Part shown: positions 301 through 50,764 of the stretch, one piece after another
Numbering within the stretch: the first letter of the stretch is position 1
How the letters are laid out: the number at the start of each line of letters is the position of its first letter
DNA from: Seison nebaliae
Lineage: Eukaryota
Reading direction: 5' to 3'
Length of the DNA stretch: 50,764 nucleotides
Assembly: GCA_023231475.1 (NCBI GenBank)
Contig: JALJEE010000580.1
Coordinates: 1 to 50,764, forward strand
Position numbers and translations under genes: made by a program
Notes under the pieces: model-generated
Seen by the model: the letters and a program-made list of their open reading frames with translations, nothing else
The model's database searches: none
What the model was told of the DNA's origin: nothing

Positions 301-937
301 ATGAGAGCATTTGGATTGAATAATATTCTTCTTTCAAAAAATCTTTTCAAAACTTTAAGATCTGCACCTATTAGATCTTTAAAAGAAAGCTAGTGAAAAC
401 TTTTAGACATTTGGTAGAATATTTAAGTTCTGTTCAAACATTTTATTTTTCAGTTGTATATGAGAAAAATGAGGATGGAAAAGAAATAACGGTTAATATT
501 TCTAACATTATCTTTTCATTTGATAGAAACCATTAGATTCGAGGTAAGCAATATGATAAAACTGCAGAGAACGTCCTTAAAGATGAGAATGGGAAACTAC
601 TTTGTTTATGTCGCTTAGAAGATAAAGGAATCAGAATACATTATACTGTTACTTAATAAGTCAATTAACAAATTCATATCAATTTATATTTCCTAAGGAT
701 GTTCTTGTATTACGTCAATTTATCAATAGTGATGGTGATGTTTTGCCTCGTCATTTGACTGGAATATGTTACGAGAAATTTCAATTAATTCACCGTTTGG
801 TAGACAAAGCAAAGAGAGCTGGTTTCATTCCATTTCTTGTCTAATTAGAAATAACGTTTTGTTTAGGACTTCTGGCGAAAGAAGAGGTAGAAGACGTTGA
901 AGGATTTCAAAAAAGAAATACATTTTTTTATTATTAA
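301..937 (+). CDS. MRPS18A: Mitochondrial ribosomal protein mL66/S18A, 5 exons (301-388, 454-491, 537-647, 698-821, 867-937)
   Basis: Spliced translation gives a basic presequence, LKEIVYEKNEDGKEITIRG and HYTDVLVLRQFINSDGDVLPRHLTGICYEK...KAKRAGLL, matching the S18 family (DVLLLSQFI..G.MLPR.ITGLC...RAGLL). Absent from the ORF track because of its introns. Intron 1 must be GC-AG. Confidence 0.88.
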
Positions 938-6970: not shown

Positions 6971-9715
6971 TTAGTCTTTCGATTTATCATGATATTGATC
7001 CATTAGCGATTGGAATGACATCGAATCTTCTTCATCACCATTAAGTCCATTGTCTTCGTCATAAATACTCATTTCATCACTCATCGCTGAAATTGCTCTC
7101 TGAGGATGAGATTGTTTCTTTTTCGGTTTTTTCAAATTTCGTTTCTCCGTCTCTCTGGACTTATCCAAAATCGGTGAATTGATTCTGGAATTTCTTAAGG
7201 AATTTGTAATTAGAAAATTTTTAGGTAAATCCATTGAATTCTTTGTAGGAGATTTAGTTCGAGTAGAATGCGCTGATTTTCTTGGGGAAGAAGAAATTAA
7301 TTTTCTTGTCTTCAAATTATCCCGATGGGAGAGTGGAAGAGATTTATTGGAAATTGCAGATAATTGATTTCTTTTGTTGAGATCTGCTGATCGAATTTTA
7401 TTTTTATGACGATGTGAACGTAACGACATTTGACGGACGGCACGAACAACATCGTCTAATTTTTCATCAGCGAACTCATATTCATCAGTTTCAGCGATTT
7501 GTTCGCTAATTTTCCGATTATATTTCTTTAATTTCAACAAATTCCGACTAGAACAAGTTATCGTATCCATTATCTGTTCATCGACTGGTTCTTTATCATT
7601 TAATTGTAAACTGTCTTGAATTATTCCAATTGACGATTTTCGCACTTCCAATAAACCATCTTCATTCAGATCGACAACTGAACAGGCACTACTCGTCAAT
7701 TCATTTTTGTCGTCATTCGGATTAGTTATCGTTCGATCTGAGAGTGAATCATATTCCATTATTTCTTCAGCTTCCTCATCACAAACTCCATATTTTTTAT
7801 TCATTGAATTATCTAAAATCGATTTTAATGGTGAATTCAATTCAGTTAATTCGTCAACAATCTTTGAAGGAGATATCAATGTCGTTTCAACGGATTTCTC
7901 AGGATGCCATGAAGATTGTTGTGTAATTTTTGTTCTTAATTTCGTCTCAGAATCTCTTCCCAATTTTACTATAAAGAAAATTGCATATTTTAAAAAAATA
8001 TTAAAGCGCACCTTCATCAATTATTTTTGTTGATGTCACCTGATGTTTCGGCTTTTTATCTTCCTCAATTTCATTAAGACGGAAAGTTTCGAAGGAAAGA
8101 TATTTCTCCAATATCGGTTCATCTAAAGTACATAACCGATTAGTAATCGACTGCAAATGGTCGTCATTCCTCGTTAAAATGAAAAGCAAAACAGAGAATA
8201 GAAATAATAGCAACTTCCTCCCCGATTTCACTGGTTTAGCAGAGACAGATCTCGCCGATTCAATTCTTGCAGTAGCAGGTCGACTTAAACGTCTATTTTA
8301 ATGAAATAAAAATGTATGAATGAAAAAGGTTTAAAATTAAACTCATCAATTTCATGTATCTTTGTAGCTGAACGGGCCGATTCTAATCTCTCGTTTTCAC
8401 ATTCAACTACCTGTTCCTTCAGTAACTTAATCTCTTCTAAATGTTGCTCTGATATATTCATTATAGTTTGAATTTCTTTTACTGCAGCCTCCTCTAACAG
8501 ATGTTGAACGGGTAATGCAGTCGAAACATTTCGCACAATTTTTCCATTTATGCTATTTTCCTTTTCTATTCGTGCTGATTCAGTTCTCAGTTTTGTTGCT
8601 TTCTTCAAAAATAGTTTCTCAGCATAACTCAACGTAGAAGTTGATGAGAATTTTATTTGTTTCTCAAACATCTTTTTTTGTTCAACCACATTTCTTTCGG
8701 TGGAAGTACTCATTTCTTTTTAATTCATTATAACATGAACAATAGTTGGACAAAGTGGAACCTTTCGTATCAAATGATGATTGTCTATAACTGTTAATAT
8801 CTCTATTCTCTTTATTATGTCTCCAATTATTCACTGCCAATTGAAATTGTTTACTACTTTCCTCTTCATCATAATTTCCTGTTCAATGAAATTGTTTAAA
8901 TTCTCCAATTATAATTTAACCATCTAATAAGTTTCCAAATGATGAAGTCACATCACAATTGATTGTATCCTGTTTACTCGTACTAACTTGTTTCTCATAT
9001 TTGCTGTTAGTATCGTTTATTGAATTTGTACGATTGTTCTCATTAATAAGTCTCTCAAAGTTATTTGTATTATACGTCGTGGGTATATGAGTTTTCATTG
9101 CACCTTTCTTGTGGAATGTCTTGAAACATCCCGTACAAAACTTTTCAGAACATTCTCGACAAATCTGAAAACATATCAACAGTTATTTCTTTTGAGTTAA
9201 ATTAAACCAATGACGCAATATTTCTTTCACACTGTCCACATTTATTTTTAATCGTATTTCGTTTTTCTATTAATTTAATTTAAAGAAAGGATATCTGAAT
9301 GAAAACTGAACTTCCTTTATCGCATTGGAGTAGAACGAGTTTTTGATCCTAAAAAATACTCACAATTAAAACTTATATATTTTAATAACTCGATAATTTG
9401 CTAAGTTGGCAGTTTTTTGTTTATGTCTTGCAGCACTGTTCCATATAGTGCCCCCTCTAATTCAGAACGGGAATTATATGAAAAGAATCTATAAAAATTT
9501 AATCATCAAACTCAGTCTCCTGCTGGAAATTTGCATGGAGAACATCGAGACGTTTCTGTATTTGTTCTCGTTCTTTCTGCAACTTTTCCGATTCCTTCTT
9601 ACTATTAAGAGAAGGATAAAGAATTAGAAGAACATTTATATATTATTGGATTTAAGTGTTGTTAATGAATTAAGATTTCCAACAAGGTTTTCGGATTCTT
9701 GTAATTATATGTCAT
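6971..9715 (-). CDS. ZBBX: Zinc finger B-box domain-containing ciliary protein, ~11 exons
   Basis: Spliced B-box CGQCERNIASL|ICRECSEKFCTGCFKTFHKKGAMKTH, plus LLDG|NYDEEESSKQFQLAVNNWR and LSYAEKLFLKK motifs shared with ZBBX. The start codon and low-complexity C-terminal exons are less certain. Confidence 0.8.
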
Positions 9716-10180: not shown

Positions 10181-11436
10181 TTACAAGTCGCTTTTAATCA
10201 AATCCGATGGTTGATTGAAAAACATTTTTGGTAATGTACTTCCAAAATAATATTTAGCATTCTTATGAACTGCTTCATATTCTTTTATTTTCAAATACTC
10301 TTCAGTTAATCGAACCTATACAATCAACAGATTTTTTAAAGAAAGAAAAAGAAAAATTTCTAACTTTATTTGCGGCCGCTTCTTTTTCACTTCTATAGAA
10401 TTCGGCGTCAGCGATCGACTTTTCTTTAGCTGTGTGCATCTCATATCCGATAATGGCAATCTTCTTCTCACTTTCTTTTTCGGAAATTTTTTGTCTGTAA
10501 TTTATTTCAGAAACCTGGGCAATTTTCTCAGCTTCGATGACTGCTTTCTTCCGTTCTGTCTCCGCTTCTTTTTCAATAACTCTTTGTTTCTGTTCTGCTA
10601 TCAATAACTTCGTCTTTTCATTTTCCCTTTAAAATGCTGAATGATAATTTTGTGAAGAAATGAAAGTAGAAACATAAGTTCATAATTCTTTCGAATTGTA
10701 TCCGGAATTCTCGGTTTAGTTACACGAACTGCCAAAACTTTCAATCCAGTTGCTCCGATATAATTCAAATCTTCTTGTAAAGCTGATTTCAGATTCTCAT
10801 CAATTTCAGCTGAATTGAAAGAATAAATAATAGATGAATAATAAGTAAAAGGGAAATAAACAGAATAAATCAATATACACTTCGTGCAGTGTATGAGAAG
10901 AACAGAATTGATTAATTTCATGATGGATCTTATTGAAAATTAAAGTTTTGTCATAATCAACCGTGTAATTCTTGACGATGTTATAAACTAAAATAATTAT
11001 CAATTTCTTATAAATAATCCAATTAAACCGTTTTCTGATTCTAATAAATTCACCACTTCAACTCGAGCGAAATAAAGAACAACTCCGCCACTCGTTCCGC
11101 ATGGAATATTATCCACTTCATCCGTTTGAACTGTGACCTGATGAGAAAAATGTTTTAGATGAAAATCTAAATAATATTTAAAAGAACTTGAATCGAATAA
11201 TGACTAGTGATAAACGGAATTTTCAAATGATATCCTGGTTTCGATGTGCTTTTCAGAAGAGCACCACCCTATTCAAATTTGAAGAAAAATTTTAAGGAAA
11301 CCATAATATTTATGAACTAAACTCGATAATAGACACCGACGTATCCTTCGTTGATATGATGTACGCCATAAGTCATGAAGCAAGTTAAAAGACCAAATAT
11401 GGCAAATGCTAACGTTGCGACGTTTTCTGGCGTCAT
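10181..11436 (-). CDS. ERLIN: Erlin (SPFH/band 7 ER protein), 7 exons (introns 11269-11322, 11138-11187, 10988-11028, 10810-10861, 10627-10673, 10316-10364)
   Basis: [86 protein letters not shown]. All six junctions are fixed by conservation. Confidence 0.96.
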
Positions 11437-27665: not shown

Positions 27666-29103
27666 GCATTTTGGCTCGTTGGTTACAGGGACTCTTTCTA
27701 AATATATTAAAGTAAACGTCATATCTTAAATATTCCTTACAATAAACTACAAAAAATCGATCAATTACCTACAATCAAAAATATGAGTGAAATTCTATCA
27801 TATTCCACGCTTAGAACTAAATGTATGAAGTTACTTAAATTATATTATCATTAAACATATTAACTCGCTAACAGTATTTTTATTATTACATTTTATTATT
27901 GTATATTGACCATTTTTAATTAAAAGGAAAATATTATGCAATTATTCCAAAACAAAAAATATTCAATTCAATCCTTTGACATCACACAAATTTTCACTGG
28001 TAAATAGGATTATTTTTAATTGTATACATACAAGAAATAGATATAAAAACAGCCAAAAAAATTAAGGATGGCAATGAATTAAACCGCTGTAGAAAATTGA
28101 AGTTGTTCTATTTAATCCGGTTTATGGATATAATAAAAAATAATCGATTCATCATAATTATAGTACAATTTATCTATATCTAGTGGGAAGGACAACCGGG
28201 ACGAGAACGGTATACAAATAAGTAATACTTATTAAGAATTTCTTTATAAAAAATAATTCACTTATCTGTATTACGAATAGTAAATGGTAATTGTGATGAA
28301 CAGTAATTTGTTAGGTCATCGAGAAGAATAAAAAAGAGGAGAATGAATTGAAAATGATAATTTAATATTCTTTTCTTCTCATTTGTTGCAATATTAGTGA
28401 TTAATTATTATGAATGTTCCCATAATGAGCATGGTATGAGGGGAAATTTTTTTGGTTTAGCGTGGTACGTATAATTTATAAGTTACTGCGCTGAAATATC
28501 AGTAACGAGAACGGATGGCGATTTGCTTTCATTCCATTTATTTGTCCATCATTCAAATTTTTATTTAGGATTTATCCATTCGTATGATTTCTACAATATT
28601 CTCTGTATTTCTTTTTTATTAGCTAATTATATTATTTTACCTTACAATTTTGTTAGTTAAAATTCTATTCTTCAAACATGGAAACATTGGAAGATGTCAC
28701 TTATTTCGTTTGAAGAGCATTAACTTTCTGACTAATTTACCAGAATTCCTCTTGAAAAAAGGATTACCTTATTGCGTGAGATTTCCACATACGTATTAAT
28801 ATTCGCTGACTCAAACAGGAAACTTTCAAATGTATCAGAGGTAAACAAAAATTTTTCTCTTCTAATTCCTTTTGAACGATCTATAAAATATGATATGTAA
28901 ATATTATTAAGACGAAATGTCCATACCATTTGGATTAGTTAATGTTGTTCAATGATTTTTATTTGTTTCTCGGATGAGAAATTATAGAATTTTCATTCAA
29001 TGATCTCTAGTTTCTCTAGAAGGAAAAAATGGACAAAAAATGGACATAAAACACATTTATTTTAGAGGAAAAGATAATTTGTCTAAAAATTAGAATTGAC
29101 TAT

Positions 29104-30412
29104 TTAAACTGATCTGCAATTTCGTACATAAAAATTTTTGGGTATAGTTTTGTAAACGTTGTCGAATAATTCTTCCACTGCCGGTTCTGATTCTTTTCGG
29201 ACGAATTGTTCTGCTTCCAACATCTCCTCCTTCACCTTCTTTTCTATTTGACGCAATTCATCACCAGTTGCTAATTCGTTTGAGAGAATCTTCTCTTTGA
29301 AAGATACGATTGGATCTCTTGTCCGTCGGACTTCTTGTACTTCCTCTCTCGTTCGATATGAGTTGCCTGGATCACTCATCGAATGTCCCATATATCGATA
29401 GGTAGACATTTCCATTATAATTGGTCCTCGGCCACTTAGACACCATTCTCTAGCAAATTTTGTTGCTGAGCGAACAGCCATCACATCCATTCCATCTACC
29501 AATATACCTGGAATATAATCTCCTCTCGTATAATAGTTAGTGGAAGCGGATGCTCGATCAACTGATGTTCCCATTCCATATCCATTATTCTCACAAATGA
29601 AAATCACAGGTAAATTCCACAATTTTGCCATATTAAACGTTTCAAACACTTGTCCCTGATTAGCAGCGCCATCACCATAAAGTGAGATGCAAACATTATC
29701 CTCATTTCGATATTTGTGAGCCAAGGCAATACCTGCACCTAATGGCACTTGAGCACCTACTATGCCATTTCCACCATAAAAATTCTTCGTATACATATGC
29801 ATAGAACCGCCTTTCCCTCCTGATATTCCACATTTCTTTCCCAGCAATTCACCTAACACTTGAACTGGAGTACCGCCCATCACATACGTCCAACCATGAC
29901 AACGATACGCTGTTACTACGGAATCGTTATTCAATGCCGATTTGATACCAACACATACTGCTTCCTTTAATTGATAATGATATTTGAATAAAATAAAATA
30001 TTAAAATGAACTTGTCCTGAATAGATGTGACAGAATCCACGGACTAATGCTTCTTTATATAATGAGATTGCTGTACTTTCTAATCGTCGCACCGTCACCA
30101 TATCTGTGTACCATTTGAGAGCATCATCTCTTGTACATGTACCTTCTACTTTGGGTCCTTCATCTTCAGATAATAAATGTTTTTTCACTGGCTAATCGAC
30201 CAACTTACACGAAAGAAACATAAAGAAAATGTCAACTTTAAATTCACATTTCATTTCCGTCATCAAATTCATCCGACTCCCATATTGCAAAGGAACAAAA
30301 CATTTTTTCTGTAAATTATTATTGATGAATATATATTCATTTTATAAATTACAGAATGAGAATAAATTCTAACTATCAATTGCTTATGAAAGGAACGTGT
30401 TATTGCCAACAT
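29104..30412 (-). CDS. PDHA1: Pyruvate dehydrogenase E1 alpha subunit, 4 exons
   Basis: [16 protein letters not shown] (intron 29965-30011), [29 protein letters not shown] motif, [12 protein letters not shown] phospho-loop. The intron 1 donor is ambiguous (GTT or GTA). Confidence 0.97.
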
Positions 30413-30686
30413 GTCTCACGGAGTGACTTACTCAAATGCAATCCTTATCTTCTGGATAAGAATTATATAAGAAATGAGTTAATTTCTCTTCGAATGAGAT
30501 ACCAAATTAAAAGAAATATTCCTGAAAAGTAATCTTAAAAAATTTTAATTTTTTAATTTTTCTTTGGTCGCCATCAAATATTTCGCTTTCATCGTATTAA
30601 TTTCCATATATATTTGTTCGGTTGACTGCAAATAAATTTTCAAAGTTTTTTCTAAAGAAGAAGACATAAATCAAGGACATCATTCA

Positions 30687-31397
30687 ATGAATAATTATCC
30701 ACAATTTGTTTGTTTTGGAGATTCTATTACAGAACGCGGCGAGACTCCTGACGGATGGGTAACATTATTACGATCTCATTTGGTCAGACGATGTGACGTA
30801 ATAAATAGAGGTATGAGTGGATTTAATTCGAAATTTCTCAAAGAAGAAGTTATTGATAAGATTGTTGATAAACCATTAAATTATGTCGCGACTTTACTCA
30901 TCGGTAGTAATGATATTTGTGCCGGTGGTGAGCGATATGTTTCACTAAAAGATTATGAAGAATATTTGAGATGTATTTTAAAACGTCTCTCAGAAACATT
31001 TGAACATGTCATTGTAATGACAATTCCGAGATATTTCAATCCCGATTGGGAAGCATATTTGAAAAAAGAAGGATTACCAGTACTCGATCCACCTCGTTCA
31101 TTGGAAATGGCTATGAAATATAACACGTCACTAAAAGAGATTATCCGTTTGGCCAATGAAGAAAATAAGAATAGTATTGTGACGGTGGATTTGTTTGAAG
31201 AGATGGGTAAATGCAATTGGCGAGAATTATTATGTGATGGTTTACATTTATCTCCACCAGGACAACAATTTGTAGCACAACAAATTCGTAAGGTAATTAA
31301 AGATCACTCGTTTGATATGGTCATTCCTCAATGGAAAGAAATCGCCGATAGAAACAAAGCACAAGAAATGCAAAATAATTTAAAAACAATTATTTAA
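30687..31397 (+). CDS. IAH1: SGNH/GDSL esterase, isoamyl acetate-hydrolyzing esterase 1 homolog
   Basis: FGDSITE, RRCDVINRGMSGFNS, IGSND and DGLHLS catalytic blocks; C-terminal PQWKEI. Confidence 0.92.
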   Translation: MNNYPQFVCFGDSITERGETPDGWVTLLRSHLVRRCDVINRGMSGFNSKFLKEEVIDKIVDKPLNYVATLLIGSNDICAGGERYVSLKDYEEYLRCILKRLSETFEHVIVMTIPRYFNPDWEAYLKKEGLPVLDPPRSLEMAMKYNTSLKEIIRLANEENKNSIVTVDLFEEMGKCNWRELLCDGLHLSPPGQQFVAQQIRKVIKDHSFDMVIPQWKEIADRNKAQEMQNNLKTII

Positions 31398-31600
31398 TAG
31401 AAATTTCATTATTTAATTTTATTTCTGATAAATATAAGATCAACAACGAACAGTCATAATTATTTTAAATATTAATATTTATTTCTCTCCTAGAGAAAAA
31501 TTTAGGAAAAAAAAGAACTCGCACACAATTGGCGAAACATTAAACAATTATTTTACAAGTATAATTTGATTCAATTTATGATTCAATCTGTTCAATTTTG

Positions 31601-33046
31601 TTATCGGCTAATATTCCATTCTAAAGTCTTAAGAAATTCATCTTCGGTAAATTGAATAACTTTCGATGTTTCCAATAACATCTTGAAAAAGAGTTGAAAT
31701 AAAAATAGAGAGAAGAATTGGGGGAAATTATAACTTTTTGTCTATTCAAAATATCGATCAGTTTCTGTTGCTTTTTAAATATTTGAAGTAATTCATTCTT
31801 CTTATTTTCCAATTTGAGATTTTGCTGTTTTAGTTCACTAATTTGATTTCGATCTTCATTCATTGTATCATGTTTATCATTTGAATTCATCTTTATCCTT
31901 TCTTTACATCTGAAATCGATAAGTTATCGGGAAATATAATTATTCTTCTAAAAAATCTAATAACTTTGCAAGTTCCTCCAAAGTTCTCTTCAATCGAATC
32001 TCTGTTGATCCACTATCTTGTTCCTTCTTCCTTTGGTCTTTCTTCAAGTTTTCTAAATCCTTTAATTCAACCATATAGTTTAAATGAAAAAAAAATTTCT
32101 GTTAACCTTTTTCAAAATATTAAATTTGATTTCTAATTCTTTCTCAGAATTTTGATAATTTTGGTTAATTTTAGTTAGTCGCTCTATTTCAATCGTTTTT
32201 ACTTTCAATTTCTGCTCAAATTTATCTTTATCCGATTTCAATTCTTTTATGATGGCTGCACTTTTCGCAGTGTTCTCATGAGTTTGAAGTGAAGTTGAAC
32301 GAATCTTATTGAGTTCATTGCGTAGAACTAGAATTTTCGCTTTCAGAAATCTTATTTGACTTTCTAAAGATTTTGAAGAATAGAATGTGAAAAAGTATTT
32401 GTAGATCAAACCAGTTCCCATATTCGTGGCAGTTGGAGGAAGAATATCTTCATCAAAAATATCATTGTCGTTAATTGATTGAGATCTGTTATTTTTGATT
32501 CGATTGGATGATGTTGGTGGGTGGCCATTCCTCAAGGAATTAGGTCTTGATGATTTACTTTTCGATACTGCAGGTTTCTCCATCGTCCCAGTATCTAATG
32601 ATAATAAGTCCATCATTTTAGTTGTATATGAATTATCATAATTTATTTCACTATTCCTTCAAAAATTTTCATATTTAATTCAGTTAAGTAATAGAAGAAC
32701 TTTCCGACAGATTCTTTTAAGAAACTATAAAATAATTTATATAATATAACAAAATAATAAAACATCTAACTGTTCATCAAACAATTTATTATCCACCAAT
32801 AGCGCCTCTTGTTTTTTCTAAAATTAATTTTTTCAAATAAAATATCAAAAATTTGGAAATAATTTTTCTAACTAGCATATCATCCGTTTCCTGGATAATA
32901 TTCGCCGTCTTTTTTTCAAGATCGTCATTTAGTTTCCTTTAATTTAATTCCAATTTTACGTTAATTAAAACTTAAATTTAATTTCAAAACCGATATGCTT
33001 CCTCGCGCTCTTCTAACGTCATCTCATCACTGCCCATTTTCGACAT
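31601..33046 (-). CDS. TEX9: Testis-expressed protein 9 (ciliary coiled-coil), 9 exons including a 24-nt exon at 32701-32724
   Basis: EREEAYR|KLNDDLEKKT, MGT|ESQIRFLKAK, EIRLKRTLEE, FKKQQKLIDILNRQK|MLLETSKVIQFTEDEFLKTLEW. Confidence 0.9.
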
Positions 33047-33875
33047 TTCATATTGCTAATTTTCACCATGACAACGATTAAGATAATCTCTTCGCTTACC
33101 GATTAATCAAATGTCATAAATTAATCATATTTAAATTTTTAGTTTTTCCAACATATTTTATCATTTTACTTGATAAACAAAAGATTGCTAAATTAAAGTG
33201 TAGCAGTTAGTTCGAGAGATAAACGAAATGATTAAAAAGTTCTTCAAATCGAAATCCTGTTTCCCATATTTTTTTCTCTTTAAATGGTTTTTCTCTATTT
33301 AGTACGAAAGCACTTATTTTAAACTGACAGAATTATAACAAGAGAACCTAAATTTTTCTTACAATCAAAAATTCCAAGAATCGACTGTGATTCCGGTAAA
33401 ATTCTCTTTGGTGTGTAATGAGACATATTTTTTTTCTCTTGGAAATTAGCATGCATACTAAAACCACGATTTTAAACACCGTAGTTTTTTCAGAATTTTA
33501 ATTATCAATTTTTTCTTGAGATATTTAAAAATAAAATCTGTAAAATACTGTCTATACGAAGTGAACGAAGTGGCAAGTAATATTATGCTTGAGAATATAT
33601 TTCATAAAGTTATGTAAACTTTTGAGTTAAGATATCAAAGTTGCAATCCATAAATGGATTAAGTATCATAATTTACTTTCGTAGGAAAAATTAACACAAT
33701 CAGTTCGTTATACAATCATCTGATATTGTCCAAAACGAGTTTTATTTTCCATGACATATAAACAATGTAAAGCTAAGATTTACAAATATTCGTGTCTTAA
33801 TTTTTTGTTAGGAATAATGTTAGAATAACATAATTTGTAACTATTATTTTCTGTTTTATAAATTATTATATTATA

Positions 33876-34685
33876 ATGGATATAATTTTGATAATATTGG
33901 TTCTTCTTTGTTTGGTTCCAGTCGGTTATATTATTTACTTCTCATATTATTCGAAAGATCGAGAATTGGAAGCAGTAATTCGTGAACGATTAAGAAATAA
34001 AAATCCACCGAAAGAAAATGTCAGTGAGGACGAAAATGAAAAAAAGGAAACGGAAAATGACATGGTGGGAGAAGGGAAGAAGATAGGAGCAAAGAAACGA
34101 AGGAAAATTGTGGAGAAAGAGATGCGTCGAGAAGAGCGAGAGAGAGAGCAACGTGAACGTGGAGAAAAGAAGAAGAAAGAAGCAGAAAAGAGGAAACAAG
34201 AAGAAGATGAGAGAATTAAGAAGGAATCATTGGCGAAAGAGAAAGAAGAGAAGTTGAAGAAAGAGCGTGAAGAAGAGCAGAAAGCAGAAGAATTAGAATA
34301 TCTCAAGTGGAAATCATCGCTAAATGTAGTGGAGGAAGGTGACGATAATGAAGTATTATCTGATCTCGATACCAAATCAACAATGTATCAACAATTCAAA
34401 AATTTCGTTATTGAAAATAAAATTGTCCGAATTGATGAAATTGCATCTATATTCGGAATGAAGACACATCGAGTTCGAGATGTTATTCAATTAATGGAAT
34501 CGACGAAAGACTTGACAGGATTCTTCGATGACAGAGGCAAATACATTAGTTTGGAGAAAGACAATATTGATTCGATTCTCCATTTCATTAATCGTCGCGG
34601 ACGGTTATCCATTAATGATCTAGCAGAGAAATCGTCAGAAATTATTCAAGTGCCACAACAAACTTTAAATGTCTCTATTGAATAA
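33876..34685 (+). CDS. DDRGK1: DDRGK domain-containing protein 1 (UFBP1), intronless
   Basis: N-terminal TM helix, KKIGAKK, charged coil, EYLKWK...VVEEG, LTGFFDDRGKYI, FINRRGRLSI. Confidence 0.96.
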   Translation: MDIILIILVLLCLVPVGYIIYFSYYSKDRELEAVIRERLRNKNPPKENVSEDENEKKETENDMVGEGKKIGAKKRRKIVEKEMRREEREREQRERGEKKKKEAEKRKQEEDERIKKESLAKEKEEKLKKEREEEQKAEELEYLKWKSSLNVVEEGDDNEVLSDLDTKSTMYQQFKNFVIENKIVRIDEIASIFGMKTHRVRDVIQLMESTKDLTGFFDDRGKYISLEKDNIDSILHFINRRGRLSINDLAEKSSEIIQVPQQTLNVSIE

Positions 34686-34923
34686 TTTTAATATTTAAAC
34701 ATTATACGTATATATATAATCATAAAATTTATCGGTTGTCGTTTCATTTTAACTTCAATCCTAAAATTACTCAAATCATTCTAAAATGCCCGTTTCCAAA
34801 AACAAATAAAAATTATTGAAATCTTTATTTTTTATAATTTCAATATTGTTAGATAAACTGTTGATTAGAATGAGAAAGCATTAGAAAATTTAATATGAAT
34901 TTATTCGTGTGAATGTCATAGTG

Positions 34924-35856
34924 TTATGTGTTGTTATAACCTCTCAACATCTCAATGACCATCCATCTCATAAATCGCATCATAACAATTTCGTACTCTT
35001 TCTTATAAAGAGTTTTTGGCAAGTTGTTGTATAAGGAGTAGAAGAATGCATCGATCATAGGAGGGAAGTATTCAATTCGGAGAGCGTATGCTCGATGTGC
35101 TTTACCCAAATTAAAAAGAATTTTTACTGCCAATCGTTCATCATCGAAATTTTTTACAACGCTTGAAATTAATCGAAATATTCGTCGTCCATGAGTTTTG
35201 AGTTGGGCGAAGTTCTCGATTTTCGACTTATTCTTTCCATCATTCATCGTATGAAATCTCCATATATGTCTCAGATTAGGATAACGCTCGAAAACCCTGA
35301 AATTTAAAAATTTAATAAAAATTTAATATTTCCTCTAAACGACGAACCTCAACATCATATCTAAGCCGTACACTCCCAAATCTCCTGTTTGTACTTCCTC
35401 CCACACTTTGGTGACTACCGCTTTCTCATAATTATTCATGGGACATCGATCCGAATAGTTCAAATGAAATTGTTTAGTTATCATATCAACCGATTTGGGA
35501 CAGTCGATTGGATAGACCAAATACAATTTCGACTTTCTACATGGAATACGATAGTGTTTAATGTTCGGCCGATAAATTTTCTCATTCGGATCTAAATTAG
35601 TCATTTCACTTTGAAAAGAATTTTTAGTTGAGATTGACAGATATTTTATTCGAACTAACCGTTCGGTTTCATAGGAATGGGCGAATTCTTGGAGAATCTG
35701 AGCCGAATCATGTCGAATCTTGATGAGATTTTGTTTTGAACTCGCACTGCTTATCGAGTACTTTTGAGAATGAAGACAACAGTTCATATAAGAAGAATTT
35801 TCCGGGTGAGTTGCTGTTTCATCAATGAACATTGGTGAAACGAGCGCACAACCCAT
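34924..35856 (-). CDS. Globin with long N-terminal extension (globin X/neuroglobin-like), 2 exons (intron 35297-35347)
   Basis: VTKVWEEV (A helix), GLDMMLR|VFERYP (B/C), LKTHGRRIF (distal His E7), LGKAHRAY (proximal His F8), EYFPPM (G helix). Starts MGC. Confidence 0.85.
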
Positions 35857-38171
35857 AATTTATATAGAAATCTATGATTTGAGAAATGAGAAAATGATAA
35901 ATGTCAAATGGAACGACATTAGGTGGCAACATTAGTAATATGTGGGTTGGCAGAAGGAGAATAATATCATACATCCGAAATATAATTAATGAATTGTTAT
36001 GTCTTGTTAGGAAGCATGGATGTACTTCAATGGGAAATGATTGATCGAGTGTAAAATAGTAGTGGAATGTTGGACGGAAAGAATTAAAAGAAATCAATTA
36101 ATTTATTTAATACTAATGATATAGATAAGTAATGAATAGGACGATATCATATTGGCAAATTTGATATCATTCAGGTTATTCGTACGATTATCAAGACTAT
36201 AAAATCAAATAATGAAAGAATTGTTATGGCATCGATGAGATTGAAGAAAAACGAATGAATCGATTGAACATGAGAAAGATATGAAGAATGGAAAATATTT
36301 CATTCCTTATGGCAGTTTATTTTATGAGAATAATGATATTATTACATCAGATTAAAAGAATTGATAAATGTAATGTTCTAATATAATGTTTCATTTCCCT
36401 CATGAATGATTACGGTTGATGATTTAGATTAAGCACTACGACATTCTCCTGCTTTCTAAATATTATACTAAATTTACTTTTTCCTCTAATTCTTCTCAAT
36501 TACCAATTATTTTTGTAAGTTCATCTTACTACTTGTGAGATAATAGGAGGAATTAATGGATACTTGTAGTAAGGAAAAAAATTTAATTTTCGATTAATTC
36601 TTTAAAATGTTATGATGAGGCTTCTTAGAAAAATGGATGTTTCCCATCCTCGGAAAGAACTCATATTCATCTCGTTACATGGAAAAGTATGCGCTGGATA
36701 CATATTAATAATTTTCATTTCAAATGAGATAAGAATTATTAATAATAGACAAGACATAAATAGATATGCAGTACATGGATCAACAAGACGACAGGTAATT
36801 GAATGGTTACTTTCTTCAAATATCACTGAAATCACTAAGGTATGTCAGAGTTTGACTATAAATGACTTCATATTTCTTTCGGTCGGATGGATCTCTATAC
36901 AAAAGATCACTAGCACGAAAAGAAATATGTTGAGGGGAAGAAGTAATGAATGATCGTAGGACGAAACCATTTTCTAGAAAGATTATGACATTTTAAAATG
37001 GCTCTTGAGAAATTGCAGGTATAGGCGAAAACTAATCAGAATCCATCATTGTTCTAACTACCAGAAAGCCATATCTCCATCATTCGCTCCATTACTCATC
37101 TCATTTATCTCATTAAAATTTTTTATCCATCTTACTCGAAATTCATTGAAATTAGAAATGACAATTAAAAAGAATTTTCATAAAGTGAAATGGAAAGAGG
37201 AGGGAGACTTGTTGATAAAACATCCGTTCTATATGAATATTTGATGATCTATTAAGTTCTTCATATTTCTCTTAATTATACGTTCGTACAAACGAGATGG
37301 AATGATAGTCGGTGGAGAAAGAAAGTCTGAAATTAGAATATTTATTAGTTCGAAAACTACAACTTAACTGGATGGTGAATAATGTTCATGAATTGAGACA
37401 TGTCGGACAATAAGATTTATCTTTGAAATATATATTATCATAATGTTAGAGAAAACGAAAATTATTCATTTTAAAAGAATGCCTCATTTTTGTCAGCTTA
37501 TTTCTAATATAAGTTCGAAAAGTAGATCGATATGTATCATAAATGTCTAATAAGTAATGGACGATAACTAAAAAACATATTAAAAGTTTGATAGACAATC
37601 GCGAGAGTAGATCGGAAGAATGATTAAGAATATTGAAAAATCAGTTAGAAATTCTCAGAAATATAGAGGACATTAATTCTTTTTTGATAATATCTCCTCA
37701 GAGCTCTCCTACCTCCTATAAAAGAGTGATGGCTGATATGATTGAGAGACGTGGAACTTCTTGGAAATGAGTGCATTCCTTCCTATCTTATGCATTGAGA
37801 ATGAAAGATTGAATCCAATTCTATTCACTTCTTCTTTTGTTAATGAAAGAAAGGAAGAAATTGTTCGCTATTCCAAAACATCATGCCACAACATAATCGT
37901 ATAAAGAAGATGTTGAGAGATATCAATATGTTTTGATTTCTCCTTAGTCGACGCATATGTCTAGAGATTGTATACGTAATGATGTTCTTCGTCTATTGGA
38001 CGAAAAAGGAGGAGGAGGAGGAGTAAGAGAAGGAGGGAAATGTGAATGAAAGAAAGAATGGATGAGCGACAGAGATGCACTTATTTCTTTTTCTTTTCGA
38101 ATGAATAATATTTGGAATCGAATAAATCTGATTTGAATGAAATAATGAATAAAATTGGAAATGAAATAAGT

Positions 38172-40902
38172 TTAGAGTTCTTGTTTGTGAGTTGGCGGGA
38201 TGAGATGATTCGGTAATGTCGTGGGCAGTTCGTGACCTTCTAATTTGATCTTCATCAAATGATTTGCCAATGCCCATTCATCTCTATTCAGATATCCATC
38301 CTTATCATGATCAGCTAACGTCCAAATCTTTCCTAAAACTGTATTTGGTAATTTGGATTTGACCATTTCAGCTTTTGCTTTGGCACCACTGAACTTTCCA
38401 CCCAATGGATTCACACGGTCAAAAACTCGGTCAGCTTCCTCACGTTCCCGGTCAACTATCCATCCGTCTTCTCCTAAACCTAAATGAAAATGAATGAGAT
38501 ATGTGTGTGAAAGATGAAAATGACTTCATTGTCCATCTAACCTGCTTTTATTCCTTCGCCCATACCAACATCGAACGGATTCTCTACCATTTGTCCAAAA
38601 ACACCACCATGTGCTACGTATTTATTCTTCGTCATATTACTAGTATCACCGCCTTCTATACACGAATGCGATAGAAGATATAGAATATTAATAAAAGGAA
38701 ATCATTTCATTTCATTTCATGTCAATTACTAAGTAGAAGATGACCCACAATCATTAATTCCCAAGATATCGAACTAACTAATTATGGTAATAAAATCGAT
38801 ATTAAGATATAAAAGCTATTTTCTAATCTGCAATCATCTATGATAAAGAACTACGAATTTGGAAAGGAAGCATTATATAAGAGAGTATAAATCATCTCAA
38901 AGCGAAAGAAGATGAGAGTAGAGAAAAAATGGTGGAACCTCCTGTTTGACTTGAATACTCGGGTGCTGTTTTTTTATAGGTGGAATAAATATTGTTAGGA
39001 TAAATAACAAATAAACAAAATGCAGAAAAATTCTCAATAAAAGTTCGAGAGTAATCCGCTCTTATAGATTGAATAGAAATTGACATTCACTGGATATTAT
39101 TCATCCAAAAAATATCTTCCTTCCATTCGTTTTTTTGGAAATGTAACAGATGCAATAACAAACATGTCATGAAGAGTGGAGGAGAGATAGATGGATATTC
39201 TCAAAAAACATTGCCCTCATTCACACATTCATTTATTTTTTTTCCCATAACTAACGTTGATCATTGATTTGAATGGCATTACGTAATTCTTGCGTCTCTT
39301 TGGGGATAAGTGCCATGAGTCGTGTTATTTCGTTCGTTGTCATATTATCAACTCGATCAATTAGTTTCTTATCGAGAGATTTGAAATTACGGAAATCCTT
39401 AAAGAAAGAAAAAAGGTAAATTATTGAAGAGAAGGGAGAGGCGAATGATACGAATAATTCCAATTATCATATTCCAAAATCAACTCATTATGACATGGTG
39501 GTAGTAGCGCATCAATCTCTTTTCCCACATTACAAATATGGAATGAAGACGATGTGGGATAATCATTAAAAAAAGAATCATCAATGTAGATTGAATATGA
39601 AGGGAATGAATAGGAGAGAAGCCTAAAAAGAAAGAAGAAGTACCATTGGCTAAATAGTAGTTATGATAAATAAAGAAATGTGACAATGAGAATAAGAAGG
39701 TTATGAATATAAGACAGAAATCGATTATTTCTCTCGAAATCTTCTTCCCCCAATCATTATACTAACAGTTCTGGACAGATATTCTCTCATTCGTTCGATC
39801 TCCGGAAAATCTCCTGGTGATATCTGATGTTCTTGTTCGATGTGACGATAAATCTTGTCAAGATTCGCAATTAATTCTCGTTTTTTCGTTTCCTTTCCAA
39901 AAACTGATGGCATCTCCTTCTTCAAATATGAAATAATATACGCATGAACCTAACAAAGAATATTTTCAATTAATTCTTATTTTGAAGTAGAACCTTTGCG
40001 GAACGTGCTCGTTTAATTAAATCATTTAATTTCCTTAATGTTGCATTTCTAGGTAAGGATTGAAGATCAGTCAATAAATCATTCTCTTCCATCTCAAATA
40101 ATTTTCGATTATGATCATATTGGTGTGGTTTATCCCAAAACGATCCGATATAAACTCGTACGACTTCCGGTGTATTGAACACCTTCCCCAACGACCACAT
40201 CAGTGCCCCATAAATCCTCATCAATTGTTGATGATTAATCATATCAGACTTGTTGAGAACAATTCGAATTTTGTCATCGTTTCGTTTGAGAACTTCGATA
40301 CATCGTTTAAATTCGTCACTGATATCTAATTTGTGAGCGTCGAATAAAAGAATGATTCGATCGACACGATCAGCAAACCATTCGAGAACTCCTTGGAAAT
40401 CATAACCACGATTAATTCTCTGTTTCTCTCCCGATAAGATACCAGGAGTATCGATGAAAGTTATTGATTCGAGCACGGGATTAGGTAGATGTGAACATTG
40501 AAATCGATTGAGGAATGTATTGCCAAATTTGGAAAGAACTTTAAATTGTTTCTTCGGATCTACAACTAATGCATTGCCAGGAATGGCACCAGTATCTTCT
40601 GCATGCATCACAGCGATATAACCATCAGTCGTCGGTTCAGGTCCAATTCGGATACCGGGAAAATCTTCTTCAAGAATATAACGAATGAAAGTCGTTTTAC
40701 CTACACTGTATTGACCGACTAATAATACCATTGGTTTGGCGTCGAAATCAGCTGCATCCAATGGTGGAGAATGAAAATCATGAAAATTGTATGCTTTCTC
40801 CAATGGATGTAAGGAATTCTTGTAAGCATTCTTCAATCCGTCAATAACCGTTCGGAATTCTTTGTTTTCCGTCTCCGATTTATTTTTCCCCCATCGACCC
40901 AT
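38172..40902 (-). CDS. EHD1: EH domain-containing ATPase (EHD1/Past1/RME-1 family), 5 exons (introns 39950-39993, 39398-39766, 38656-39255, 38480-38541)
   Basis: GQYSVGKTTFI, IGPEPTTD, DTPGILSGEKQ, LLFDAHKLDISDEF, LNKSD; C-terminal EH domain SKLPNTVLGKIWTLADHDKDG. Confidence 0.97.
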
Positions 40903-42306
40903 TTTCCTGTGCAAAATTATCAATTTCTGACTTTGTTCAATTTATTCAGATAAATGCGAGATGGTGGGAATGGATAGAAGAGAATCAGTTTCTATAAAAC
41001 GAAAATAGTTTCAACTTCCAAATGAAAGATTTTATTAATGAGTTTTTATTTCAATTGAACTAATAATAGTCAAATAAAATTATAATAATTCAATTCAATT
41101 TATAAATCATAAATGATCATATCAAAATAAATAAATGAGCGCAATTGACAAATAGAAATAGGGATATTAAGAATAGTTTGGAAATGAAAGAGTTAATTAG
41201 AATTTAATGAATTAAAAATATTCTAAAATATATTTTAAAAAGAATTTATTAATAATAAATAAACTTTAGATGTTCTGAAAATTATGATAAGTTATTTTTC
41301 ATAAAATTCTTCAACATTAAACGACACTTTACTGTTGTTGTTGAGAAATTCAAATGTCGGTGTCTCTTAGAATTATCATCAGACTTATTAGCGCACTTTC
41401 ATTCTTTTCTCCTATTCAATTTTTATAGAGTCTCCAACCATTAATTTCATTCAGTGAGTTAACATGCATACACCACACGTTCAATCGGACAAGTTTACTT
41501 CCTTTATCTGGATCATGTGATTATGAACGTTGTTGCATAATTTACTGAACGACGATTATCAACATACTAATTTATCATCGAATACGATTTAAACGTGTAC
41601 ACATGATCAGGTACTTCTGAAGTCATCTCAAATAAGTCTGAAGGAGAAATAAGTCGTTTAATTATTCTATAAATCTACTGCTAAGTACACTAGTTCAACA
41701 CAAGAGAAGAAAAATTAGTCAGTCAACACAACTCAACTCCATTTGGTACATCGTTATTCCAAAATTAGTGACTTTTATTTAATAAAGCTTCTCATCTTTC
41801 TCATCTCTAAATGGTGTTGCTTATCTAAGGATCATTTATAATGGTTTACAATTTATAATTTAATAGTATTTCCCTTCTAAAATGTTCAAATTATCCTCGT
41901 AATTTAAAACAATTTTGAATTGTTGTTAATTATAATCATCATTATTTCAATTCAAACTTAATACCAAATAACATATTAATAGATGACAATATAATTAGTT
42001 TCAATAATTTCATAATTTATGTGATGGAATGTAATAAAAAACATTTTAATTCAAAACACATTCCTCTATCCTCTTTAAAAACTCAATTAATTAATTTCAA
42101 AAATAATTTTGCAGCAACACAAAACTTATCTGCTTAGACTCTCTAGAAGAAGTTATATTTTAGTCACAAGCTTAATATTTGAACTGGGAGATTGGACTGT
42201 CTCATCACACGGTCATTATAAGAGATGAATAATGATTAAATTTAAAGCTAATTAAAAAGAATTAGAGGAATAATTTAATTTACAAATTTGTATTTCCGAA
42301 TCCGAA

Positions 42307-43220
42307 ATGTTCTTAAATGTTAGTTTTCTCGTTTCATACTCGAACAACTTTTATGATTGTTCCATTGACATCGACAGGCACCTAATTGTTCTCGTGAATT
42401 ACTTTGTCTTCAAAAAGAATTGAAGAGATTGCAGAAACAACAAGATGAGGCATGTTCATCGCTTAATTACTTGTTAACTGAACGAGCGAAAGCATTGAAA
42501 GTTAAATTTTTTTCTTCTGTCAATTTAATTCTTCTTCTAATTTTCCAGGATCCTGCACTCTTCATGAAGAAGTTGAAAGAGAAGTTGGAAAATTGTTTAT
42601 TAAACTATTTGATAATTGAATGACATTTCATTATGTTTTATAGTGATGAAGATTGTTTTAAAATGCCAGAACCACTTCAATTGCAATTCGATCTGGTTTT
42701 GGGAGGTGACAAAACTACTTCTCTTCCGGAGGTGGCGCTTGGTTTTGTGATGAATGTTGAAGAGTCGTTGAACGAAGATGAGGGAAAGACGGTTGATGTA
42801 GAAATGATAAATGGAATTGAAGAAACGACCGAGATGAATGAGAAGGATGTTGTTAAAGTTGAATCTACAAATACAAAAGGAACTCGAATTCGAGATGACA
42901 AGGGTTCGAGTTCCTCAGAAACAAATGGAAAAAACGGAAGGACATCAACTAAAATTAGAAAAAAAGTTAGACCGCAAGGTAAAAAAAACCAACCGAAAAG
43001 ACCGAGTGCTGGATGTAGTAGATGGACAACAGAGGAACATGACCGTTTATGTGCATTAATGAGGAAATATCCACCGGAAGAAGTTCAAGCTAAACGTTGG
43101 AGGAAAATCGCCGAAGAACTTCATTCGAGAACTCCCCTACAAATTCAATCTCATGTTCAGAAAATGGCCAAAAGACTTCCTGATTGGGAAGAAAATAATA
43201 CTAATAATTGTAGTTCTTGA
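42307..43220 (+). CDS. ZZZ3: ZZZ3-like SANT/Myb protein, 4 exons (introns 42319-42377, 42501-42548, 42584-42643)
   Basis: RAKALK|DPALFMKKL coil motif and SANT WTTEEHDRLCALMRKYPPEEVQAKRWRKIAEELHSRTPLQIQSHVQK, both characteristic of ZZZ3/ATAC1. No ZZ finger found. Confidence 0.72.
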
Positions 43221-43440
43221 AATAGTTATTGTCAATCAAAAAACTTGTTGTTATTTCCTTCGTTATTTCACTCGCCTTCAGTTTCACATACTCTTCTCGT
43301 TGTAAAGAAAATCTCTAATTTTTTTTAATCTTTCCCAAAACCGGTTATACGGAAGATATATTTTTCTTGTTAATTCATTTTTTTGTTATAATAATAAAGT
43401 TATTTTAATTTAAAGGATAATTTATTTAACAATATTATCA

Positions 43441-46959: not shown

Positions 46960-48880
46960 GTTTATTTGTTTATTTATTTATTTGTAATAAAAGAAAAAGA
47001 AGGAGAAAAAAAGGAACACGATTGGGCAGAGCTGCAGAAAAATCGACTTATCTATCGGAAAAAATATATAAAGATCCCAAATACAAAATCCCATACAGTG
47101 ACAATTCAAACGTCGCTCTCGAGAAGAATCCTCAAAGTGCTAGGCTGATTTTTTTCTATCAGGGTCTTGACAGAATTTAAAGTAGACCAGTTCGTCACGT
47201 AATCGGGACACTGAAGAAAACGACAAGATGAACTCACGAAATTCTGTTGAAAGAGGTGAGTGGTTTATCGAATAGTATACAACGGTGGAAGAAAAGATGG
47301 AATGATTCGATGTGATAGAACAAGAGATGATAATCAGGAGGCACATCATCTTGAGCGAATCAGGCACATACGAAATAATGTTGAAATTTGATGTCAACAC
47401 TAACGCGTCAGACAGTGAGTTCGGATACGTAATTGAGTAATAACGGAAAAAAAAATTTGAGAGGCGATGAGAAGTCCTCACATTGTGCATAAATTGGAAC
47501 TGAAAGAGCTGAACTGCGACTACAATCAACTACTTTCACATACCTCTGCGCCAGGAATAATGGCAATGGAGTCAGTTCGCAAATCGTGAACATAAATGCT
47601 CTATTGAAAGGCTTATGACAACCGAGCATCATCCGAATTGTTCTATTATACGTTCGATCAAGGCAACGTAGTGACTTATCAGTATTCGAGATAGAGACTG
47701 CTAATCCCTACAAGTCGCAACAGTAACAAACAAATAATTTCTACTTCAATTTAAGAGAAAAAAATTTGTAGCGATGATGAAAAGAGTAATTTTACTCATT
47801 TGAATAAGAATAGATCATAAGATCATTTGATCTTAGAAATCTGCATCTTACTCGATCTACTAGTGCTGAACTTTTCCTCTTCGATTCGAACTGACACCCA
47901 AGAAAACACACTTCCTTGTTCCTCACAATGAAAACGAATTGGAAATCTTGAAATATTCGACAGAATTGACGATTTACTCTCGTCACATATGATTCCTACA
48001 ATAATTAACCGATTATGAATGAACTCATTGTCAGTAATCTTTTTACATTGACGAACATTATTGGCACATATGAGAATGTCGTCTGCATATGCAATGACTG
48101 CAGGAAAAGAATTCGTCCCGATTCTAAATGAAAACAACTGATAAGATTCAATGAGAATTCCATCTATCACTTTCCCAAAATCCATGGGGCAAGAATACAT
48201 TCTTGTCTCACTCCTTTATTTATGCGAAATGTCTCCGATTTTGTATCTCCAACTTTTACCACTCCGAAGGAGTTAGTGAAGATCTCATTAATGAAAGAAA
48301 GATAAATTTCATCAACTCCTTCTCTCCGTAAAATATCGATACCATGCTCCATACTGATAGAGTCGAAAGCTTTCGATGCGTCCATGAAGAAGAAAACAAA
48401 TTTCGAGTTTACAATACGTGATGAACAGATCAAAAATTTTAAATAAAGAATCAGAGGCATGGTTCCCCTATTATCTTCCCGATAAGCGAATTGAAATTTC
48501 GACGAACATACCTGATTTACATATCTATTCTTAATTATCTGTTCAGTCATCTTGATTAATCCGCTAGCGACACAGATAGGACGATAGGAATTAACTTCCG
48601 AAGCGTCCTTACAATGCCCTTTATAGATTGGAGTGATAGAAAACAATCTGATGTTGCTGAAATCGACATTGCCAGTCAATACATCATTAATATACTCAAC
48701 TATCAATTGAAATGATGACTCCTTTAATGTGACGAACTAATGACTACAAACTTAATGCACGTGGAAGTGATTGTCAACCGAGAGCGACTATTGACTTAAC
48801 AAGGCTTGTGGACTCAGAAACTGCTGACTCAACGTTGGAATCATCTTGGAAGGAAACGCCACCCTCCTTTCGCATGGAAT
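46960..48880 (-). mobile_element. 5'-truncated, frameshifted non-LTR retrotransposon (RT and 3' end)
   Basis: ITPIYKG...SYRPI, QFAYR, FMDASKAFDSI, GVRQ(frameshift)CILAP, IAYADDIL, FLGC. Ends in an (AAAT)n-like tail at 46960-46984, typical of CR1/L2-group LINEs. Confidence 0.92.
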
Positions 48881-49276
48881 TATTTACCGAATTATTTATA
48901 TCAGACATGTCAAAAAAAAATTTTTTTTTTTGAATAAATTTTAAAATAACAGAAATACGCTAAATTACAATCGATGCATTAAAATTTCTTTTTGTCTTCA
49001 AGTCATTCTTATTAACAGCAGACGAAGAATTCCTTATGTCACAGTTTTAGATATAATTTTAGTAATCAGTTCGTTATCTGTCATTTGAGGAAAATCTATT
49101 TCATAATATACATGTATTCGTAATTTCATATTATTCGTTTTATTTATTATAAATAGATTATATTATAGATATTTAGAACCCAAAATTACATCTGCATCTC
49201 TTTATTATTATTCAAATTAATTGTCATAAATGAAACTATGAACTAATATGAATATATAAATACAATTTGAAAAAAA

Positions 49277-50338
49277 ATGATCGATTCGAGTACCTGTACC
49301 GATATCAACTCTTCAATCATCTCCAACGCACCTGTAGTAATTACACCGTTAGTCCCCGGTGACGCATCGCAATCCTCAGGTATGGATCGTATTCTTAACT
49401 CATCAACCTTCCAAGAATTATTAGAGAATTCCTCGACTAATACCGGAAGGAAAAGAAAAAACGACGATACAAACGTAACCTCTACAAATCGTCAAACTCC
49501 TTCAACTGCCAATAAATTTTCTAAATCGAATCCTAGTAACGTCGCAATACTCAACGAACTCTCTGAAATCAAACAACTGCTTCGTTTGCTTCTGAACCGA
49601 AACGCAACACCCACGGTGAAACACGAAATCGGTTGTCAAACTGTCGACATTGAATTAGTGAAATCATCAGTTCGTTCTCCATCACAAAAAACGAAAACGA
49701 ACGATCTCACCACATCTTCCAATTGGTTCTCCAACAGGACTTCCGTCTTGCGCGCGAAGCTAACGTCAAACGGCGAGTCAGCTCGAAAGGAGACGACTGT
49801 TTCATTCGATAATCTACCAATTCCTGCACGGCCCACTCACAAGAAGAAAAAACCGAGGAGCAAACCAGCTGTAGCCGTCGTAACCGGCACTCGTACAAGC
49901 TGTTCTGTTCTTGGGGCTCCTCCTCGTCCAACCGTACCGATACTCAGGTCAATGCTAGTTACCAACCTCGAACCCGACACGAAATCTTCCGACATCTCTT
50001 CACTTCTCCAACAATCCAATCTGGATTTCGTCAAGTTGTGGCGTATGAGAAGCAAAAAGAGTGACGATTCCCTAAATATGGCCCGTTCATTCATTATACG
50101 ATGTTCGGTTGACAATCTGCAAAAATTTCTCGATCCTTCTCTGTGGCCTGAACGTGTCAACATTCGCTATTTCTTTTTCTCTTCCTCCACCAACGATTTT
50201 TTAAGAGAGAGGTGCATTGAGTTCGTCGAAAACTCTTCGGACGTTACCATGACGACTCGCGCTCCTCCTCTTCTTTCTATCTCTTCTTCTTCCTCCACTT
50301 CTCTCTCAGCTCCTTCATCTTCATCCATATCTTTATGA
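49277..50338 (+). CDS. LINE ORF1 protein (disordered region, short coil, RRM-like C-terminal domain)
   Basis: ILNELSEIKQLL coil; SMLVTNLEPDT...SFIIRCS...FLDPSLWPERVNIRYF is the pattern seen in CR1/L2-group ORF1s. GC-richer than host DNA and directly followed by an APE domain. Confidence 0.78.
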   Translation: MIDSSTCTDINSSIISNAPVVITPLVPGDASQSSGMDRILNSSTFQELLENSSTNTGRKRKNDDTNVTSTNRQTPSTANKFSKSNPSNVAILNELSEIKQLLRLLLNRNATPTVKHEIGCQTVDIELVKSSVRSPSQKTKTNDLTTSSNWFSNRTSVLRAKLTSNGESARKETTVSFDNLPIPARPTHKKKKPRSKPAVAVVTGTRTSCSVLGAPPRPTVPILRSMLVTNLEPDTKSSDISSLLQQSNLDFVKLWRMRSKKSDDSLNMARSFIIRCSVDNLQKFLDPSLWPERVNIRYFFFSSSTNDFLRERCIEFVENSSDVTMTTRAPPLLSISSSSSTSLSAPSSSSISL

Positions 50339-50764
50339 CGTAACCATCCCTCCGTTTTATCTTCTGCTTCATGTTCACCCATATTACTCCAGTCTTCGGA
50401 TTCGAAGAAACTGTCACTTGTTTCGTTCAATTCGAATGGACCGTCGAATTTATGTTCAAATCTACCATTCCTCTTACATCACGAGTTAATCTTCATACAA
50501 GAATCCTGGCTCATCTCTCCATATCCGAACTGGCTCTCATCGGATACACATCGTCTTATTTCTCTCGACGCGATGGTCAATATTTCAGGTCTTGGCAGAC
50601 CATCAGGAGGTCTCCTCGTCTTCATTCACGAATCTTTAACCGCAACCGACATCTGTGATTTCGGTAGATGTTCCATTTCTTTCCGCATAGAGAATGTAAT
50701 TTTCTACAACGTCTACCTCCCTACAGGCGACGTAGGAATAATTTCTTCTTTTTTCGAATGCGTA
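50339..50764 (+). mobile_element. LINE ORF2 APE endonuclease, truncated by the window edge; not in the ORF track
   Basis: Frame is open for 142 codons to the edge: KLSLVSFNSNG...LIFIQESWL...GRPSGGLLVFI...FYNVYLP. Confidence 0.9.

Follow-up and report, generated by a model that had tools for sequence, protein, structure and literature searches.

The window, by which we mean the whole stretch of 50,764 nt analyzed here (contig JALJEE010000580.1 of Seison nebaliae, a minute marine animal related to rotifers), holds 11 intron-bearing genes onto which 13 NCBI-annotated proteins were each placed exactly, by one mapping apiece. The resulting set comprises 52 introns (~4.7 per intron-bearing gene), 50 donors and 50 acceptors, all from this one contig, with a median length of 49.5 nt when the shortest intron is taken for each donor. 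The intron calls rest on the NCBI annotation, reading-frame logic and homologs; the mapping allowed only GT or GC...AG ends, and all 52 introns restore the frame with such ends, splicing being obligatory for the frame in 47. A donor-blind gene model fused neighboring genes and invented spurious long introns, and its counts were therefore restricted to introns of 40-65 nt. The EHD gene is SNEBB_009902, as given by its protein label and a 100% match of the first exon; the other gene names are presumptive, being taken from the first-pass annotation of this DNA or based on Pfam accessions. The features needed below are these:

389..453, plus strand: GC-AG intron of a ribosomal S18-family gene, donor GCTAGT (mapping of P0130)
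7969..8011, minus strand: 43-nt intron, donor GTGCGC after the exon end aag, the sole constitutive donor lacking T at +3 (P0127)
10316..10364, minus strand: 49-nt intron of a Band-7 gene (ERLIN in the first-pass annotation), donor GTTAGA (P0129)
30309..30373, minus strand: 65-nt intron of an E1 dehydrogenase gene, donor GTTAGA (P0123)
32725..32770, minus strand: 46-nt intron of SNEBB_009899 (likewise labeled TEX9), donor GTTAGA (P0126)
32818..32872, minus strand: 55-nt intron of the same gene, donor GTTAGA (P0126)
35609..35659, minus strand: 51-nt annotated intron of a globin gene, donor GTTAGT (P0125); less certain, since in-frame read-through is possible
38480..38541, minus strand: 62-nt EHD intron, donor GTTAGA (all three isoforms and the donor-blind model)
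38656..39255, minus strand: 600-nt EHD intron, micro-exon-skipped form, donor GTTAGT (isoform P0121)
38939..38965, minus strand: 27-nt alternative EHD micro-exon with its own donor GTTCCA (isoforms P0003 and P0122)
39398..39766, minus strand: 369-nt EHD intron, micro-exon-skipped form, donor GTTAGT, acceptor AAG (exact mapping of P0003)
39644..39649, minus strand: 6-nt alternative EHD micro-exon (Pro-Met) with its own donor GTACTT (isoforms P0121 and P0122, annotation only)
39950..39993, minus strand: 44-nt EHD intron, degenerate donor GTTCTA (all three isoforms and the donor-blind model)
42319..42377, plus strand: 59-nt intron of a Myb-domain gene (labeled ZZZ3), donor GTTAGT (P0124)

Outside the intron set lie five long genes with apparently intron-free coding parts (2531-4081, 4577-6889, 14085-15395 on the minus strand, 30687-31397 and 33876-34682), which adjoin genes bearing 3-10 tiny introns. 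Positions 47400-50764, at the end of the window, resemble by eye a non-LTR retroelement, with broken reverse-transcriptase-like frames on the minus strand (48736-47411) and long plus-strand frames (49271-50764). Transposase-like fragments at 21721-23215, within 21200-23850, are placed between short repeated units (~21230-21370 and ~23640-23750) that to the eye resemble the inverted ends of a DNA transposon. Contigs of the sequencing runs X1 and X2 cover 28000-43400 at even depth and without intron joints, and have no bearing on expression; runs X6 and X7 yielded no contigs there. Within that interval those of X1 and X2 differ from the window only at 33406-33531, a short repeat-like segment upstream of two divergent genes.

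Long introns and micro-exons of the EHD gene

Three EHD isoforms are annotated by NCBI (P0003, P0121 and P0122), and the 369- and 600-nt introns each occur in just one of them, as exon-skipping forms. The first-pass annotation had taken these for the only two long introns, a description that does not survive the micro-exon isoforms: the 6-nt exon divides the former into an upstream intron of 117 nt and a downstream one of 246 nt with donor GTACTT, and the 27-nt exon divides the latter into introns of 290 and 283 nt. Among 116 motif-matched EHD proteins, 114 show the spacing of the skipped form, without the 6-nt insert, and the other two are the Seison micro-exon isoforms themselves. It is probably because they host regulated micro-exons that both introns are long. 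Of the four donors that open introns above 100 nt, two are GTTAG and the others are GTACTT and GTTCCA, and long introns compared on their own with short ones (2/4 vs. 8/46) do not differ significantly in GTTAG content (p=0.17).

An A-to-T switch at donor position +3

Animal donors usually carry A or G at their third position. In the mapped set this position is T in 48 of 50 donors (47 GTT and one GCT), including 43 of the 45 donors of obligatorily spliced introns, with A and G once each; a purine at +3, as in GURAG, is thus confined to GTGCGC and to the GTACTT that follows the 6-nt EHD micro-exon, the only GTA donor in the set. The same letter follows 251 of 645 unused GT (39%) in the same genes (binomial p~1e-17) and, within introns, 50 of 98 unused GT (p~3e-12). 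T at +3 is near-fixed in this one contig, an atypical letter held as in Entamoeba.

Beyond +3 the donors are loose, the commonest letter at +4 being A (22/50, against 13/50 for T), with G at +5 in 16/50 and T at +6 in 18/50, and the short introns are degenerate after GTT, as the first-pass annotation had observed. Compared with unused GTT in the same genes, donors with +3T are enriched for G at -1 (16/48 vs. 30/251, p=0.0005) and A at +4 (22/48 vs. 48/251, p=0.0001), and less clearly for G at +5 (15/48 vs. 52/251, p=0.08), which at 16/50 nevertheless stands well above the intron interior (p=3e-7). T at +6, on the other hand, is less frequent than in intron interiors (47% T), and the 16 donors with +5G continue with A (9), T (6) or C (1). 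The absence of enrichment for +6T means that the strong donor is GTTAG, not GTTAGT. The earlier view of this donor as canonical GTAAGT with a single A-to-T change at +3 therefore stands as to register, with +3T, +4A and +5G, and lacks support at its sixth letter. Measured against the usual features of U2-type introns, the set shows GT/GC-AG ends and the preference for -1G, +4A and +5G, and departs at the +3 purine. For the window this demonstrates a change from A to T at +3 with the register unaltered.

Does the strength of the donor follow intron length? The seven donors singled out in the first-pass annotation do read as it reported, GTTAGT at 39766, 39255 and 42319 and GTTAGA at 38541, 10364, 32872 and 32770; it had missed GTTAG at 30373 and 35659, as well as the GC donor at 389. 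Together G[TC]TAG opens 10/50 introns vs. 11/251 unused GTT (Fisher p=0.0004), and the strict hexamer G[TC]TAGT opens only 5/50. By length, G[TC]TAG is found in 1/21 introns of 41-47 nt, 3/18 of 48-55 nt, 4/7 of 56-99 nt and 2/4 of 100 nt or more. The predicted rise of GTTAG with length thus holds within the window (Mann-Whitney p=0.001; p=0.003 below 100 nt; p=0.009 without EHD), in tests that rest on introns already seen when the rise was proposed. The argument first drawn from the long EHD introns is weak, since these are two in number, both hold micro-exons and leave +6T unsupported. The match of positions +4 to +8 to U1 also grows with length (Spearman 0.36, p=0.011); among the 50 donors the exonic match shows no trend with intron length, and no compensation between -1G and +5G was seen (p=0.76).

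The single GC donor of the set corresponds to the strong donor with C for T at +2, and the frame opening at the ATG at 301 reaches a stop right after the GC at 389. GC donors lose one U1 pair and usually match U1 closely elsewhere, so that GCTAGT, as one site, fits +3T being a preferred, paired letter.

At the other end of the intron, position -3 of the 50 acceptors is T in 24, A in 13, C in 12 and G in 1, and no clear pyrimidine tract rises above the T-rich background. Against the -3 baseline of animal acceptors AAG appears unusually common, and this may be coupled to the change at +3. A branch-point motif YTRAY lies near the 3′ end of 24/52 introns, compared with 27.7 in shuffles.

Two explanations would dispense with a switch in the normal register. 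Were there no selected signal at all, the GTT excess would come from T-rich introns, their interiors being 47% T, or from a self-trained gene predictor, a concern for intron calls that rest on annotation; yet +3T stands at 96% against 47-51% (p~1e-12), persists where the donor is forced because no other GT within 15 nt would preserve the frame (33/35), and recurs in the donor-blind model, in which 18 of the 22 introns of 40-65 nt open with GTT (17/19 within the 11 genes). The 6-nt exon, the GC donor and a 5′-partial protein further suggest that the annotation was transcript-based, and an artifact of this kind is very unlikely. Equally unlikely is a shifted register, in which a canonical U1 would pair one base downstream with donors of the GTTAAGT type. 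GTTAA is indeed more frequent among donors (6/50) than among unused GTT (10/251, p=0.03), but a one-base shift with A at +4/+5 calls for G at +6, which occurs in just 3/50 (background 7%) while G is enriched at +5 instead, and shifted pairing separates donors from decoys no better than chance allows (p=0.15), so that this reading is largely refuted. A donor signal read by U6 (+4U, +5G, +6U) was also considered and rejected, T reaching 13/50 at +4 and 18/50 at +6 against the 47% background.

U1 pairing and its alternatives

In the human U1 snRNP, donors are chosen mainly by base pairing, and +3 faces pseudouridine 6 (Kondo et al., PMC4383343), so that the first-pass annotation was right to set U1 position 6 opposite donor +3. 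Building on its prediction, we propose that position 6 of the main U1 snRNA has changed from U to A, giving the 5′ end AUACUAAC (ACUAAC for ACUUAC), so that +3U would again have a Watson-Crick partner. The altered U1 would read the fixed core G-U-U through C8, A7 and A6. In introns of 41-55 nt this core together with intron size (intron definition) may be enough, and longer introns would depend on +4A and +5G in addition. U6, if unchanged, could accept +3U through a G-U wobble, as in Entamoeba, and the rare GTA and GTG donors might be rescued by a good exon end or by a leftover canonical U1 copy. Because the window carries no U1 gene, the change is a prediction, which we hold with moderate confidence as the likely cause of +3T: neither U1 nor any other Rfam family is found in the window at gathering threshold, a permissive scan of it yields no U1 and only 7 sub-threshold chance hits (E up to 5), and ACTWACCTG with one mismatch matches 12 times vs. 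9.2 expected.

The pairing statistics bear chiefly on the canonical sequence. With the canonical U1 end, true donors are barely distinguished from unused GT (AUC 0.53 by pairs or by duplex energy), and in 27/50 donors no run exceeds two pairs. ACUAAC raises the AUC to 0.74-0.81 by pair counts and to 0.65 when duplex energy is used, and leaves no donor (0/50) without a run of at least three pairs. This gain is partly circular, and the poor canonical fit is the informative part. The mean duplex energy of Seison donors is only -3.4 kcal/mol, and since the donors are loose after +3, unlike those of Entamoeba, pairing may be weak whichever letter U1 carries. Against the change count the two donors that keep a +3 purine and a sample of 50 donors, annotation-based and from one contig.

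A further cost is possible, in that AUACUAAC is also the branch-point consensus UACUAAC. The donors at 39766 and 39255 extend to GTTAGTA, the reverse complement of TACTAAC, so that pairing between the strong donor and a branch point is conceivable, and the 5′ end predicted for U1 would mimic such a site. Such U1 ends do occur in nature. A scan of metagenomes for the variant 5′ end combined with a stem-loop I motif returned at least 115 loci (about 140 estimated); a motif screen of 115 found five with three further U1 motifs and seven with one, and of these 12, all taken to Rfam, five clear the RF00003 threshold with 85-141 bits across the whole model, reading AUACUAACCUGG (ACUAAC), a yield of 5/115 loci in a scan for the variant end alone. 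The five full-length genes, from metagenome eukaryotes, are:

L004, 271-431: U1 gene with ACUAAC
L005, 401-561: U1 gene with ACUAAC
L093, 301-461: U1 gene with ACUAAC
L111, 171-331: U1 gene with ACUAAC
L046, 401-553: U1 gene with ACUAAC

The first four form two close types, which differ at three positions within the gene and at a larger number in its flanks, and L046 is unrelated to them; U1 ends identical to the branch-point consensus are therefore present in at least two lineages. These genes support feasibility only, and they may be minor variant copies.

The principal alternative leaves U1 canonical and has +3U held as a U-pseudouridine mismatch, selected by an altered U1-C, LUC7, TIA1, SNRNP27K or PRP8, or else through wobble pairing to the first G in the ACAGA box of U6. 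It draws on the fact that most lineages with unusual donors have left U1 as it was, those being +4 changes: canonical U1 is kept in 69 and 227 Saccharomycotina genomes and in Micromonas, Thecamonas and Giardia (bioRxiv 10.1101/2022.06.08.495308; PMC10581693). U1-C, which contacts only the backbone, yet stabilizes +3U mismatches on canonical human U1 (PMC4383343); in Caenorhabditis elegans the +3 letter matters for SNRP-27-dependent splicing (PMC11347140), and GUUUGU is able to pair more extensively with U6 ACAGA (bioRxiv 10.1101/2022.06.08.495308). For +3U itself the single lineage tested, Entamoeba, changed its U1, which by analogy would favor a changed U1 here and is one case. Taken with the poor canonical fit, we regard an unchanged U1 as rather unlikely. 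Less probable again, and distinctly so, is a compensation in U6 (e.g., G facing +3 changed to A) or the loss of U1, with donors chosen at the U6/U5 step. Cyanidioschyzon merolae has a reported U6 ACAGA change and is also missing U1 (PMC10581693, PMC11347168), and Seison has undergone gene loss and has compact genes (PMC8351084). ACAGA is, however, invariant in 240 fungi (PMC10581693) and retained in Entamoeba (bioRxiv 10.1101/2022.06.08.495308), and alternative micro-exons with loose donors would fit a full spliceosome. The changed U1 remains our preferred reading. Its fullest form, in which GURAG became GUUAG genome-wide and the main U1 was rewritten to a UACUAAC-like 5′ end, with micro-exon splicing kept and the same U1 variant present in at least two other eukaryote lineages, we advance tentatively, at slightly less than an even chance.

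Seison among known splicing systems

In animals, the +3 purine and the U1 sequence ACUUAC are regarded as invariant. For nearly all donors to switch in an animal with several introns per gene, thousands of sites would have had to move together with their machinery, and Seison thus offers a one-letter test: do U1 and splice sites co-evolve, with +3 set by U1 and +4 by U6? Gene prediction in Seisonidea is affected as well, as it would be in their relatives, the thorny-headed parasites, were the switch shared. GTT donors are known in print from Entamoeba and Anaeramoeba pumila and are new for animals as far as our searches reach: the literature searched, most subscription papers being outside its reach, yielded no GTT donors in an animal and no account of Seison splice sites, and no donor logos of other rotifers or of acanthocephalans were found in print. 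The accessible portions of the S. nebaliae genome paper (PMC8351084) mention snRNA nowhere and intron twice, and its two supplements contain none of the terms intron, splic, snRN, METTL16 or U1 small. One apparent precedent for a U1 change was not counted: GTGAGT has been called perfectly complementary to the U1 of Yarrowia (Mekouar et al., PMC2911113), which is contradicted by the finding that ACUUACC is invariant in these yeasts (PMC10581693).

The closest parallel is Entamoeba, in which GUUUGU(U) donors, with U at both +3 and +4, are accompanied by a co-evolved U1 ACAAAC and a normal U6 ACAGA; U1 is changed there at both facing letters and in Mastigamoeba at one (Roy & Bowser, bioRxiv 10.1101/2022.06.08.495308). 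Seison shares with Entamoeba +3U in nearly all introns, and the position-6 change predicted for it is one of the two Entamoeba U1 changes. In Entamoeba, however, +4 is changed as well, donors are strict (88-89% GUUUGU) and the branch point is positioned, whereas Seison, an animal, keeps +4A and +5G, is loose beyond +3, lacks a branch-point signal and has alternative micro-exons. Anaeramoeba pumila uses 5′ GTTAGT (bioRxiv 10.64898/2026.04.11.717937), the very hexamer of the strongest Seison donors, but it is a metamonad protist with strict donors and 22 introns in its genome, far from the intron density seen here; its main text, so far as accessible, has 0 hits for snRNA and does not mention U1. 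The Saccharomycotina resemble Seison in a lineage-wide change of one donor letter, tied in their case to METTL16/SNRNP27K with no change in U1 or U6 sequence (PMC10581693); the letter is +4, where A gave way to U, and Seison keeps A as its commonest letter at that position. With the major U2-type introns of animals (GURAG), finally, Seison has in common its GT/GC-AG ends, its -1G, +4A and +5G and its stronger donors in longer introns, and it differs from them in carrying U rather than A or G at +3, in the A found at -3 of 13/50 acceptors and in its indistinct pyrimidine tract.
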